Shown piece by piece: positions 17,193 through 21,832 of a stretch of DNA of 64,000 bases. The notes beneath the pieces are model-generated. The model made no database searches, was not told the origin of the DNA, and worked only from the letters and a program-made list of their open reading frames with translations. The position numbers and the translations under genes were made by a program. Each line of letters opens with the position of its first letter. The first letter of the stretch is position 1. Source of the DNA: Escherichia coli (lineage in GTDB: Bacteria > Pseudomonadota > Gammaproteobacteria > Enterobacterales > Enterobacteriaceae); NCBI RefSeq assembly GCF_003334315.1, contig NZ_QOWR01000005.1; one strand, given 5' to 3'.

Positions 17193-18143
17193 TTATAGTT
17201 TGGCGGCAAGAAGATCTTCCAGTTTGCGTTGATCAACGGCGAACAGACGAATGCCTTCAGACAGTTTTTCTACCGCCATCGCATCCTGATTGTGCTCCCA
17301 ACGGAACTCCGCTTCGCTCATGGGAGCTGGGTGTGGGAACGTCTGAGAAGGTGGGATTAATTTACGTACCACTGGCGAAACTTTTTCCTGCAGCTCCTTC
17401 AGCAAATTCGGTGCGATAGTCAGTCGATCGCAGCCGGTTAAGGCGAGGATTTGTTCGGTGCGACGGAAGCTCGCGCCCATCACAATGGTTTCATAGTGGT
17501 GTTGCTTATAGTAGTCGTAGATATTGCGCACCGATTTAACGCCCGGATCTTCTTCCACCACATACGGGTCCATCGGCTTGCGTGCCTGATACCAGTCATA
17601 AATACGCCCGACAAACGGCGAAATCAGAAAAACGCCTGCTTCCGCACAGGCCCGGGCCTGTGCAAAAGAAAACAGCAGCGTCAGGTTGCAGTTAATACCT
17701 TCTTTTTCCAGCTCTTCTGCCGCGCGAATTCCTTCCCAGGTCGAAGCCAGCTTGATCAGAATGCGTGATTTCTCAACGCCTTGTTGCTGATACAAGTCCA
17801 CCAGATGGCGCGCCTTCTCAATACTCTTTTCTTTATCAAAAGAGAGGCGTGCATCAACTTCTGTTGACACGCGACCGGGTACGATTTTGAGAATTTCAGC
17901 ACCGAAATTGACCGCCAGTTTGTCACACGCTGCGACCACCTGTTGTTCCTGGGTCTTGCCATTTTTTTTACCCCAGGCGATAGCATCGTCTATTAAATGC
18001 TCATATTGTGATAATCCGGCAGCCTTGAGTAACAGCGAAGGATTGGTGGTGGCATCCTGGGGATGATAATGGCGAATGGACTCAATATCGCCGCTGTCTG
18101 CCACGACAGTGGTGAACTGTTTGATGCCGTCTAACTCGTTCAT
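17193..18143 (-). CDS. talA: Transaldolase A
   Basis: 316 aa; transaldolase family; talA-tktB operon arrangement. Confidence 0.93.
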
Positions 18144-18431
18144 AGGAAATACTCCTTGAAAAGTAAAGTGTTAGATGAGTGCGTTAATTCACACTTCTGA
18201 GAAATTTCGCTAAACGCATCAAAAAAGCATAGCAGACAGGCATGGTATTGCTGGATTAAGCAGGTAACATCAGTGTTATAGGATTATTACCAAAACATTA
18301 TATTAATGGTGAGAGTTTGGACTTGCTCAAAGTCTGTAGACTCCGGCAAGGTAATAATGTGCGCCACGTTGTGGGCAGGGGCTGTTGCCCACACACTTTA
18401 TTTGTGAACGTTACGTGAAAGGAACAACCAA

Positions 18432-20711
18432 ATGGATGACCAGTTAAAACAAAGTGCACTTGATTTCCATGAATTTCCAGTTCCAGGGAAAATCCAGGTT
18501 TCTCCAACCAAGCCTCTGGCAACGCAGCGCGATCTGGCGCTGGCCTACTCACCAGGCGTTGCCGCACCTTGTCTTGAAATCGAAAAAGACCCGTTAAAAG
18601 CCTACAAATATACCGCGCGCGGTAACCTGGTGGCGGTGATCTCTAACGGTACGGCGGTGCTGGGGTTAGGCAACATTGGCGCGCTGGCAGGCAAACCGGT
18701 GATGGAAGGCAAGGGCGTTCTGTTTAAGAAATTTGCCGGGATTGATGTATTTGACATTGAAGTTGACGAACTCGACCCGGACAAATTTATTGAAGTCGTC
18801 GCTGCGCTCGAACCGACCTTCGGCGGAATCAACCTCGAAGACATTAAAGCGCCAGAATGTTTCTATATTGAACAGAAACTGCGCGAGCGGATGAATATTC
18901 CGGTATTCCACGACGATCAGCACGGCACGGCAATTATCAGCACAGCCGCCATCCTCAACGGCTTGCGCGTGGTGGAGAAAAACATCTCTGACGTGCGGAT
19001 GGTGGTTTCCGGCGCGGGCGCCGCAGCAATCGCCTGTATGAACCTGCTGGTAGCGCTGGGTCTGCAAAAACATAACATCGTGGTTTGCGATTCAAAAGGC
19101 GTTATCTATCAGGGCCGTGAGCCAAACATGGCGGAAACCAAAGCCGCATATGCGGTGGTGGATGACGGCAAACGAACCCTCGATGATGTGATTGAAGGCG
19201 CGGATATTTTCCTCGGCTGTTCCGGCCCGAAAGTGCTGACCCAGGAAATGGTGAAGAAAATGGCTCGTGCGCCAATGATCCTGGCGCTGGCGAACCCGGA
19301 ACCGGAAATTCTGCCGCCGCTGGCGAAAGAAGTGCGTCCGGATGCCATCATCTGTACCGGCCGTTCCGACTACCCGAACCAGGTGAACAACGTCCTTTGC
19401 TTCCCGTTCATCTTCCGTGGCGCGCTGGACGTTGGCGCAACCGCCATCAACGAAGAGATGAAACTGGCGGCGGTACGCGCGATTGCAGAACTGGCCCATG
19501 CGGAACAGAGCGAAGTGGTGGCTTCAGCGTATGGCGATCAGGATCTGAGCTTTGGTCCGGAATACATCATTCCAAAACCGTTTGATCCGCGCTTGATCGT
19601 TAAGATCGCTCCTGCGGTCGCGAAAGCGGCGATGGAGTCGGGCGTGGCGACGCGTCCGATTGCTGATTTCGACGTCTACATCGACAAGCTGACTGAGTTC
19701 GTTTACAAAACCAACCTGTTTATGAAGCCGATTTTCTCCCAGGCTCGCAAAGCGCCGAAGCGCGTAGTTCTGCCGGAAGGGGAAGAGGCGCGCGTTCTGC
19801 ATGCCACTCAGGAACTGGTAACGCTGGGACTGGCGAAACCGATCCTTATCGGTCGTCCGAACGTGATCGAAATGCGCATTCAGAAACTGGGCTTGCAGAT
19901 CAAAGCGGGCGTTGATTTTGAGATCGTCAATAACGAATCCGATCCGCGCTTTAAAGAGTACTGGACCGAATACTTCCAGATCATGAAGCGTCGTGGTGTC
20001 ACTCAGGAACAGGCGCAGCGTGCGCTGATCAGTAACCCGACAGTGATCGGCGCGATCATGGTTCAGCGTGGGGAAGCCGATGCAATGATCTGCGGTACGG
20101 TGGGCGATTATCATGAACATTTTAGCGTGGTGAAAAATGTCTTTGGTTATCGCGATGGCGTTCACACCGCAGGTGCAATGAACGCGCTGCTGCTGCCGAG
20201 TGGTAACACCTTTATTGCCGATACCTACGTCAATGACGAACCAGACGCAGAAGAGCTGGCGGAGATCACCTTGATGGCGGCAGAAACTGTCCGTCGTTTC
20301 GGTATTGAACCGCGCGTTGCTCTGTTGTCGCACTCCAACTTTGGTTCTTCTGACTGCCCGTCGTCGAGCAAAATGCGTCAGGCGCTGGAGCTGGTCAGGG
20401 AACGTGCGCCAGAACTGATGATTGATGGTGAAATGCACGGCGATGCAGCGCTGGTGGAAGCGATTCGCAACGACCGTATGCCGGACAGCCCTTTGAAAGG
20501 TTCTGCCAATATTCTGGTGATGCCGAACATGGAAGCTGCCCGCATTAGTTACAACTTACTGCGCGTTTCCAGCTCGGAAGGTGTGACTGTCGGTCCGGTG
20601 CTGATGGGCGTGGCGAAACCGGTTCACGTGTTAACGCCGATCGCATCGGTACGTCGTATCGTCAACATGGTAGCGCTGGCCGTGGTTGAAGCGCAAACCC
20701 AACCGCTGTAA
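18432..20711 (+). CDS. maeB: NADP-dependent malic enzyme
   Basis: 759 aa; malic-enzyme domain fused to C-terminal phosphotransacetylase-like domain. Confidence 0.93.
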
Positions 20712-20729
20712 TTCTTTTTTTAACTCTCA

Positions 20730-20757
20730 CGCTTACCCTGAATATTCAGGGTAAGCG
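20730..20757. other. Perfect 28-bp palindrome downstream of maeB (candidate terminator or operator)
   Basis: cgcttaccctgaatattcagggtaagcg is its own reverse complement; T-run immediately upstream. Confidence 0.6.
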
Positions 20758-20762
20758 GTTTA

Positions 20763-21004
20763 GCTGCAATATATTAGTAAAGCTTATTACTGAGTTTGCG
20801 AATAATAAAAAAAGCAGTATATAAAATATCTCGAGATTATTTTATTTATATTCATGCGTCGCATATGAAAGTTTATTCATAACAGTAAATATCTCTCCAT
20901 TCTTAGTGATCTACCTCACCTTTTAAACGCGCTTGCCGAATTTTGTTATTTACTCTGACGAAAAATTGTCACGATACACGAAAGTTTTTCACAGGCGGCG
21001 ACTC
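20763..21004 (+). promoter_or_regulatory. AT-rich eut operon promoter region upstream of eutS
   Basis: about 240 bp AT-rich non-coding DNA preceding the first eut gene; exact sites not resolvable by eye. Confidence 0.5.
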
Positions 21005-21340
21005 ATGGATAAAGAACGCATCATTCAGGAATTTGTGCCCGGCAAACAGGTCACGCTGGCGCATCTCATCGCGCATCCCGGCGAGGAACTGGCGAAGAAA
21101 ATCGGCGTTCCGGATGCTGGCGCAATCGGCATTATGACGCTAACTCCCGGCGAAACGGCGATGATCGCCGGTGATTTAGCATTGAAAGCCGCTGATGTGC
21201 ATATCGGTTTTCTCGACCGTTTTAGCGGCGCGCTGGTGATTTATGGCTCGGTGGGTGCAGTAGAAGAAGCGTTATCACAAACCGTCAGTGGTTTAGGTCG
21301 CTTATTAAATTATACGCTTTGTGAAATGACCAAAAGTTAA
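21005..21340 (+). CDS. eutS: Ethanolamine microcompartment shell protein EutS (BMC domain)
   Basis: 111 aa from ATG 21005 ([10 protein letters not shown]...); ORF track starts 24 codons upstream. Confidence 0.9.
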
Positions 21341-21352
21341 TACGAGGCATTC

Positions 21353-21832
21353 ATGAAACGAATTGCGTTTGTGGGTACCGTCGGGGCAGGGAAAACAACG
21401 TTATTTAATGCGTTGCAGGGGAATTATACCCTCGCCAGAAAAACACAGGTCGTGGAATTTAATGATAAGGGCGATATTGATACGCCGGGTGAATATTTTA
21501 GCCATCCCCGCTGGTATCACGCCTTAATTACCACGCTACAGGATGTGGACATGCTGATCTATGTCCACGGCGCGAATGACCCGGAAAGTCGGTTGCCTGC
21601 CGGGTTGCTGGATATTGGCGTCAGCAAACGGCAAATCGCCGTTATCAGTAAAACGGACATGCCGGATGCTGACGTCGCCGCAACGCGAAAGTTATTGCTT
21701 GAGACGGGCTTCGAAGAGCCGATTTTCGAGCTAAACAGCCACGACCCGCAAAGCGTGCAGCAACTGGTGGATTATCTGGCATCTCTCACCAAACAGGAGG
21801 AAGCAGGTGAAAAAACTCATCACAGCGAATGA
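21353..21832 (+). CDS. eutP: Ethanolamine utilisation P-loop NTPase EutP
   Basis: 159 aa; Walker A GTVGAGKTT. Confidence 0.9.
   Translation: MKRIAFVGTVGAGKTTLFNALQGNYTLARKTQVVEFNDKGDIDTPGEYFSHPRWYHALITTLQDVDMLIYVHGANDPESRLPAGLLDIGVSKRQIAVISKTDMPDADVAATRKLLLETGFEEPIFELNSHDPQSVQQLVDYLASLTKQEEAGEKTHHSE

Follow-up and report, generated by a model that had tools for sequence, protein, structure and literature searches.

The stretch of Escherichia coli DNA analysed here (64 kb, referred to below as the window) contains maeB and, downstream of it on the same strand, eutS. Between these two genes, at 20730-20757, lies the sequence CGCTTACCCTGAATATTCAGGGTAAGCG, a 28-nt palindrome that is 100% self-complementary. 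The earlier note had described a perfect 28-bp palindrome that lies between maeB and the eut promoter, 19 bp behind the maeB stop, and this description was accurate in each particular: the first base of the palindrome is the 19th after TAA, leaving a gap of 18 bases, and both the eutS start (21005) and the conserved promoter block (about 20900-20975) lie further downstream. A run of seven T occupies 20715-20721, the palindrome beginning 8 nt further downstream, and GTTTA, absent from the earlier description, follows the palindrome directly at 20758-20762. The region is composed of the following features.

18432-20711, plus strand: maeB coding sequence (NADP-dependent malic enzyme), stop codon TAA at 20709-20711; taken from the open reading frame list, with the annotation maeB in every matching E. 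coli genome
20712-20729, plus strand: 3' UTR leader, including the T-run 20715-20721; polymorphic (TTCTTTTTTT, TTCTTTTTT, TTTTTTTT, TTCATTCTT)
20730-20741, plus strand: 5' arm of the hairpin, CGCTTACCCTGA; invariant in the sampled E. coli except for C7->T in BL21(DE3), which gives G·U
20742-20745, plus strand: loop AUAU, 4 nt in the E. coli fold
20746-20757, plus strand: 3' arm of the hairpin, TCAGGGTAAGCG; the K-12/BL21 lineage has A in place of the final G and hence a stem of 11 bp
20758-20762, plus strand: short U-tract GUUUA; probable maeB mRNA 3' end at 20761/20762, by homology to MG1655 positions 2576050/2576049
20763-20837, plus strand: AT-rich, C-poor (C 9-10%), weakly structured spacer, specific to Escherichia (alignment A1)
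20838-20975, plus strand: C>G-rich stretch (C/G 1.6-2.3), candidate Rho-loading region; overlaps the conserved block 20900-20975, presumably the eut promoter/operator
21005-21340, plus strand: eutS, gene 1 of the eut operon; start placed by homology to the annotated K-12 gene

Folded as RNA, the palindrome gives a stem of 12 bp, 7 of them G-C pairs, closed by a 4-nt loop; its energy is -20.4 kcal/mol (z = -7.8), a stability that none of 200 shuffled sequences reached. The chance expectation of a perfect 14+14 palindrome is about 2e-4 per 64 kb by an arithmetic estimate, and no second long perfect palindrome occurs in the 64-kb window; the 28-nt palindrome is not due to chance.

The region 20600-21100 is 100% identical to that of E. 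coli strain CP53 and is present in 5,424 of 5,426 complete genomes, with a median of one place per genome for this 501-bp segment; about 145 of the 5,424 do not reach 80% coverage of it. The palindrome itself was found in about 5,410 of the 5,426 genomes, at one site in each, and the BLAST median of '2 places' per genome arises from the palindrome matching itself on the opposite strand, an effect that we reproduced locally. Searching the 64-kb window for the half-site or core with up to 3 mismatches gave no copies beyond the shuffle expectation. In Rfam, searched with 20300-21300 and E-values up to 10, only noise was found (best match 22 bits against a gathering score of 49, all E-values at least 2), and the hairpin sequence was not found printed in the literature searched. 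The recurrence as a generic repeat element, with further copies of the half-site, which the earlier note had taken into account, was therefore not observed, and the palindrome is single-copy.

IS1 elements have entered this place in two strains. In E. coli PRO_A-1482-6W-A_ESBL (locus L088, 2040-2810), IS1A lies inside the 3' arm of the hairpin (window 20747-20755), flanked by a 9-bp target duplication CAGGGTAAG, and splits maeB from that arm and from eut. In E. coli 19AR0656 (locus L082, 3100-3880), IS1B is joined to the last maeB codons (…CCG CGG TGA), the stop coming from the IS1 end, and a deletion corresponding to window 20706-21482 has removed everything from the hairpin through the eut promoter and eutS into the 5' part of eutP.

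Within E. coli the stem hardly varies. A 36-nt core is identical in 4,047 of 5,411 records, while 1,205 carry one mismatch and 159 carry two. The change was G28->A, in the outermost pair, in all four one-mismatch records examined, and the one two-mismatch record examined, BL21(DE3), combines it with C7->T; apart from these two substitutions all E. coli sequences read share one stem. At window position 20757 (K-12: NC_000913.3 2576054) the K-12/BL21 lineage has A for G, in about 1,200-1,360 of the 5,411 records, and since this is the last base of the palindrome, the K-12/BL21 element is a 26-nt perfect palindrome with an 11-bp stem. Both flanks of the hairpin are variable, and the tail 3' of it occurs as GTTTAGC, GTTTTCC, GTTTGGC or GTCCAGC, the last with a single U. 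A long-range pairing of the upstream T-run with an A-run about 85 nt downstream was considered and rejected, because the lengths of the two runs do not co-vary among strains.

Mapping of the maeB mRNA 3' end, by which the earlier note had proposed to check its suggestions, is available for MG1655 in published work. In SMRT-Cappable-seq, transcripts with a 5'-triphosphate are caught and read at full length (Yan et al. 2018, PMC6131387). For b2463 (maeB), on the reverse strand of NC_000913.3, Supplementary Data 1 of that study gives three TSS-TTS pairs, each labelled 'novelTTS'. In M9 medium, for the TTS at 2576050 (TSS 2578498), 11 reads end at the site, 12 end within 50 nt and none pass it by at least 50 nt; in rich medium, the TTS lies at 2576049, and the corresponding numbers are 37, 2 and 3 for TSS 2578443, and 21, 7 and 4 for TSS 2578531 (PMC6131387). 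Read-through of at least 50 nt past the site thus amounts to 0/23, 3/42 and 4/32 reads, or 0%, 7% and 12.5%. The same data set contains five maeB start sites (2578443, 2578498, 2578517, 2578531 and 2578917, corresponding to about 17890-18370 of the window, upstream of maeB), and the apparent read-through varies with start site and medium (PMC6131387).

In MG1655 coordinates, maeB ends with its stop at 2576098, the 28-nt element runs from 2576081 to 2576054, and G-U-U-U-A follows as the tail at 2576053-2576049. The mapped ends thus fall on the final U of GUUUA and on the A next to it, directly after the stem and 4-6 nt past it. As A-tailing leaves ends at A ambiguous by at least one base (PMC6131387), the 3' end of maeB mRNA is effectively ...GCAGUUU-3'. 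It lies 18 nt from the hairpin centre, and the corresponding distance for known terminators is 14-22 nt in the part of the table examined (PMC6131387). In K-12, 3' ends therefore fall in the U-tract and most transcripts stop there, although a rare maeB-eutS-eutP transcript variant is also recorded (PMC6131387). Ethanolamine with B12 induces Eut proteins and not MaeB (PMC11334477). The suggestion of the earlier note that the element may insulate eut from maeB read-through is thus supported by transcripts ending at GUUU(A), by read-through of 0-12.5% and by the lack of co-induction of MaeB with eut. All experimental data come from K-12, where the outermost stem pair is C·A, as against C-G in the strain of the window. 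No maeB or eutS 3' end was found by gene name or coordinate in the Term-seq tables of Adams et al. 2021 (PMC7815308), and TERMITe holds no entry for the maeB 3' end.

Of the features of an intrinsic terminator, a stable, G+C-containing stem-loop lies in the sense orientation shortly after the stop codon, but a U-rich tract immediately 3' of the stem (about 7-9 nt, with at least 5 U in 8) is missing in E. coli. Under a mechanical rule that calls a terminator when a stem-loop is followed by at least 5 T in 8, the E. coli tail GUUUAGCU, with 4 T in 8 and 3 consecutive, is not called, the scan finding 0 terminators; its score is 2.3-2.8, whereas most terminators at the orthologous position score 5.0-5.9. 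By this rule the homologous hairpins of E. whittamii (locus L003, tail ATTTTTATAT) and of Escherichia sp. MOD1 (locus L001, tail GTTTTATTGC) are called as terminators. In Escherichia the hairpin thus has the look of a true intrinsic terminator, and in E. coli its U-tract seems to have eroded and become polymorphic. The remark that the T-run lies on the wrong side for a plus-strand terminator is correct for the long T-run, but the short GTTT tail on the proper side was overlooked. In classical intrinsic termination the transcript is released 7-9 nt from the stem; the 4-6 nt found here is shorter and compatible with trimming, and a GUUU directly at the stem can still permit some release.

A hairpin is a constant requirement at this position, its sequence is not. 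Eighty species-representative loci were collected with the C-terminus of MaeB as an anchor, irrespective of whether eut follows. In 26 of them eutS follows maeB: three are from Escherichia, all with the same hairpin, and 23 from other genera. In about 20 of these 23, from Citrobacter, Klebsiella, Pseudocitrobacter, Yokenella and Salmonella, there is instead a canonical intrinsic terminator of unrelated sequence, typically GGCGCGGG-loop-CCCGCGCC with T5-7 behind it. It begins 17-20 nt after the maeB stop, as compared with 17-18 nt for the E. coli hairpin, and abuts a block conserved across genera that reaches the eutS ATG (window about 20900-20975). Where eut is not adjacent to maeB, other terminators or REP-like palindromes occupy the same place. 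Conservation of position with change of sequence fits a terminator and not an operator, and since the Escherichia stem is unrelated to the Citrobacter/Klebsiella terminator, the hairpin appears to have been replaced in Escherichia. Both the hairpin and an AT-rich spacer of about 140 nt behind it (20763-20895) exist only in Escherichia (alignment A1); the spacer, with about 72-76% A+T, is absent from Citrobacter, Klebsiella, Yokenella and Pseudocitrobacter in the same alignment, and in one Escherichia lineage (locus L002) about 56 nt of it are deleted.

Judging by its sequence conservation, the block 20900-20975 is presumably the eut promoter/operator, with the EutR operator. It contains GTGA-N6-TCAC (GTGATCTACCTCAC) at 20906-20919, which we take to resemble the core of a CRP site. 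The sigma-70 scan called no promoter at 20900-20975, and the reviews and the CsrA paper searched offered nothing usable on the position of the EutR operator. In Salmonella enterica subsp. diarizonae (locus L057, 3100-5207), about 2.1 kb separate the maeB terminator (GGCGCAGG…CCTGCGC + T6) from eutS. This stretch has a 413-aa open reading frame on the opposite strand, whose CNLNCAYC (CX3CX2C) motif is suggestive of a radical-SAM enzyme.

Further evidence comes from a bicyclomycin experiment, in which a Rho termination region was reported on the maeB strand at 2575860, with a score of 5.5 and p of 1.5e-13 (Adams et al. 2021, PMC7815308). The 3'-end reads upstream/downstream of this coordinate were 161/21 in untreated cells and 195/140 with bicyclomycin, counted in 800-nt windows (PMC7815308), so the downstream RNA may start at the maeB promoters, at spurious promoters or at eut promoters. 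Position 2575860 corresponds to about 20950 of the window, so that 55 nt separate it from the eutS ATG downstream and about 189 nt from the end of the hairpin upstream. The C/G ratio at 20838-20975 is 1.6-2.3, in the 95th-100th percentile of the window, and the first 80 nt or so after the hairpin are C-poor. The published Rho coordinate, at about 20950, falls at the edge of this C>G-rich stretch, which also extends over the eut promoter block. In the spacer after the hairpin no significant RNA structure was found, and a backup hairpin at 20823-20849, where the few read-through reads seem to end, was rejected, as its fold is no better than those of shuffled sequences. A class of Rho-terminated transcripts has been described that are trimmed to U-poor stem-loops without upstream A-tracts, with rut sites immediately downstream of the stem-loops (Dar & Sorek 2018, PMC6061677). 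The maeB hairpin has the structure of this class, namely a stable stem-loop at the 3' end, a U-poor (though not U-free) tail and no upstream A-tract.

The short, polymorphic U-tract, taken together with a Rho-dependent region about 190 nt downstream beside a C>G-rich stretch, makes a composite mechanism most likely, and we favour it with some reserve: some release at GUUU driven by the hairpin, Rho acting as a backstop in the spacer, and exonucleases being halted by the hairpin. According to this proposal, a hairpin of 12 bp and -20 kcal/mol would form in the nascent RNA 18 nt beyond the maeB stop as RNA polymerase leaves. Together with the short GUUU it would act as a weak, U-poor intrinsic terminator, releasing a fraction of the polymerases. 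Those that escape would transcribe about 190 nt of untranslated, poorly structured RNA, C>G-rich in its distal half, and would be stopped by Rho before or around the eut promoter. The longer products could then be cut back to the hairpin by 3'->5' exonucleases, the hairpin also stabilising the message. As a net result, maeB mRNA would end sharply at ...GCG-GUUU, and eutS would receive little transcription independent of EutR. While the hairpin, the 3' end at it, the low read-through and the Rho-sensitive RNA downstream are observations, we infer how the work is divided between intrinsic release and Rho with trimming. The poor U-tract and the missing scan call speak against the intrinsic part, as does the lack of a Term-seq 3' end at this place in Adams et al., and in the lineages with GTCCAGC, judged by the single U of the tail, a pure exonuclease-barrier role may fit better than intrinsic release.

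One can also imagine that Rho alone terminates transcription, 100-250 nt downstream, and that PNPase/RNase II trim the product to a protective hairpin, as in the class described by Dar & Sorek. Such a mechanism is possible but, in our opinion, rather unlikely. Much at this locus agrees with it: the poor and polymorphic U-tail and the U-run rather than an A-run upstream of the stem (the Dar & Sorek stem-loops have reduced U content and no upstream A-tract; PMC6061677), a significant Rho region on the same strand in the maeB-eutS intergenic region, the C>G bubble downstream of the hairpin, the 3' overhang of just 4-6 nt, and, in M9, no fewer reads that end in the 50 nt beyond the site (12) than on it (11). 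However, bicyclomycin did not lower the 3'-end count in the 800-nt window that holds the hairpin (161 to 195), and the C-poor first 80 nt or so past the hairpin contrast with the immediate rut sites of the Dar & Sorek transcripts (PMC6061677). Moreover, the same hairpin bears a canonical T-tail in sister lineages and canonical terminators stand at this position in other genera, which indicates that hairpin-driven release is the ancestral function. A GUUU placed directly at the stem can, moreover, support some release.

Conversely, the hairpin and GUUU might be sufficient, with the bicyclomycin signal derived from unrelated transcripts, either from spurious promoters in the AT-rich spacer or from basal eut activity that is normally shortened by Rho. 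Indeed, 88-100% of the reads that reach the site have stopped by 50 nt from it, the 3' end coincides exactly with the end of the U-run, the homologous hairpins of sister lineages are called terminators, and the upstream 3'-end count was unaffected by bicyclomycin. Nevertheless, purely intrinsic termination appears to us quite improbable. The U-tract is weak and variable, the GTCCA allele being included, a Rho region on the same strand with a rut-like bubble is most simply fed by maeB read-through, and the rare maeB-eutS-eutP transcript exists.

A separate problem is whether the symmetry acts in DNA, as a dimeric protein-binding site, which the earlier note had considered possible in view of its AT centre. 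In our small sample of five distinct Escherichia variants, which includes neither E. albertii nor E. fergusonii, there are five variable stem positions and no double compensatory change. Four of the five give G·U on the plus strand and a mismatch on the minus strand, and the outermost pair is the sole one changed in the opposite direction. Across the five variants 96.7% of the cells are paired in maeB-sense RNA compared with 91.7% in antisense RNA, and the fold energies, sense versus antisense, are -16.3 vs -7.5 kcal/mol for Escherichia sp. MOD1 (L001) and -19.6 vs -15.6 kcal/mol for E. whittamii (L003). Both lineages show C->T and A->G changes in the arms, and their loop measures 5 nt rather than the 4 nt of E. 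coli when read in the 12-pair register of the E. coli stem (alignment A2); left to fold freely, L001 gains one additional pair and its loop is 3 nt. A search of contigs with EutS yielded only E. coli-type sequences and no further stem variants. This strand asymmetry is suggestive of a structure in plus-strand RNA, as far as alignments can tell, and the one-sided stem changes and the altered loop length argue against a dimeric protein operator of fixed spacing.

A DNA operator for a dimeric transcription factor regulating eut or maeB thus seems highly improbable. The perfect palindrome with its CTGAAT/ATTCAG half-sites and the strong conservation of the stem inside E. coli would suit such a site, and the half-sites presumably recall those of the ARG-box and of Cra, but with the wrong spacing, so that they serve as a lead only. 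Against an operator, sister species lose the symmetry by one-sided changes, and the centre, longer by 1 nt in L001 and L003, shifts the half-site spacing; half-sites and spacing are therefore not conserved across species that share the promoter. The sequence is missing from other genera with the conserved eut promoter block, where an unrelated hairpin takes its place. The palindrome follows the maeB stop and precedes that block by about 145 nt; the 64-kb window contains no second copy of it, full or partial, each genome has one site, and the literature searched does not print the sequence. The suggestion of a protein-binding site was accordingly not borne out.

That the element is a generic repeat, a relic of a mobile element or a recombination site (REP-like element or IS target) is hardly credible and already effectively refuted by copy number, for although REP-like palindromes do follow maeB in other genera and IS1 inserted in or beside the hairpin in two strains, the sequence is single-copy in 5,410 genomes, its apparent second place being a self-match on the reverse strand, and it is unlike those REP-like palindromes. 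We conclude that the palindrome is very probably the 3'-end hairpin of maeB mRNA, and not a DNA operator or a repeat.

On the evolutionary side, one may picture a remodelling in which an ancestral canonical maeB terminator, kept in Citrobacter, Klebsiella and Salmonella, where it abuts the eut promoter, gave way to a new hairpin and a spacer of about 140 nt, and in which decay of the U-tract in E. coli made termination partly Rho-dependent. The tail alleles GUUUA, GUUUU, GUUUG and GUCCA, together with growth conditions (read-through of 0% in M9 and 7-12% in rich medium), would then tune a trickle of EutR-independent, maeB-driven eutS-eutP transcription. As a whole, this scenario seems to us unlikely.

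Published genome-wide tables already contain the 3' end (2018) as well as the Rho region (2021), although the locus is discussed in neither paper. The significance beyond annotation is small: the maeB transcription unit gains a defined 3' end, and it becomes understandable why constitutive or acetate-induced maeB promoters do not drive eut, kept under the control of EutR (ethanolamine + B12). Two points are more general. A terminator missed by predictors based on the U-tract can still set a sharp 3' end in vivo, and terminator hairpins turn over between close genera while their position is kept. The natural polymorphism of the tail also offers a cheap test of what a 3-U tract contributes given a Rho backstop.

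Among known elements, REP/BIME repeats share with the hairpin the character of an intergenic palindrome 3' of a stop codon, able to stabilise the upstream mRNA, and REP-like elements fill the 3' region of maeB in Enterobacter, Raoultella and Leclercia; the E. coli hairpin differs in being single-copy and has no resemblance to those REP-like palindromes. In Enterobacter, Leclercia, Lelliottia, Pluralibacter and their relatives, maeB is followed by at least one copy, often in tandem, of a CCCTCTCCC-loop-GGGAGAGGG palindrome family, and further genera carry GCCGGATAAGCG/CCCGAC-type REP-like elements 3' of maeB. Such repeats were recorded within the first 100 nt after maeB in loci L025, L038, L043, L050, L053, L056, L058, L060, L062-L064, L071, L072, L075 and L077. 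The palindromes after maeB in those genera are evidently dispersed repeats, unlike the E. coli hairpin.

Closer parallels are found among transcript ends. With the stem-loops of Dar & Sorek the maeB hairpin shares the reduced U content, the absence of an upstream A-tract, a precise 3' end, and Rho-sensitive RNA with a C>G stretch downstream. It differs in that the C>G stretch of E. coli starts about 80 nt after the hairpin and not at once, in that GUUU is present, and in having sister homologues with full T-tails. The concept of 3' UTRs in which Rho backs up a weak intrinsic terminator (bioRxiv 10.1101/2022.07.21.500918) is similar too, in that an inefficient-looking terminator is followed by Rho and insulation is tight; it is applied to the maeB locus by analogy only. 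From the maeB terminator of Citrobacter and Klebsiella the E. coli hairpin departs in the length of the stem (12 bp vs 8-9 bp) and its unrelated sequence, in the polymorphic 3-U tract, in having no upstream A-tract, and in the spacer of about 140 nt that follows. The likeness lies in the offset of 17-20 nt from the stop, the same strand, and a stable stem-loop upstream of the eut promoter block, in E. coli with a 4-nt loop, 7 G-C pairs and in vivo 3' ends at the U's after the stem. The element, in short, works like an ordinary enterobacterial terminator or 3' stabiliser.
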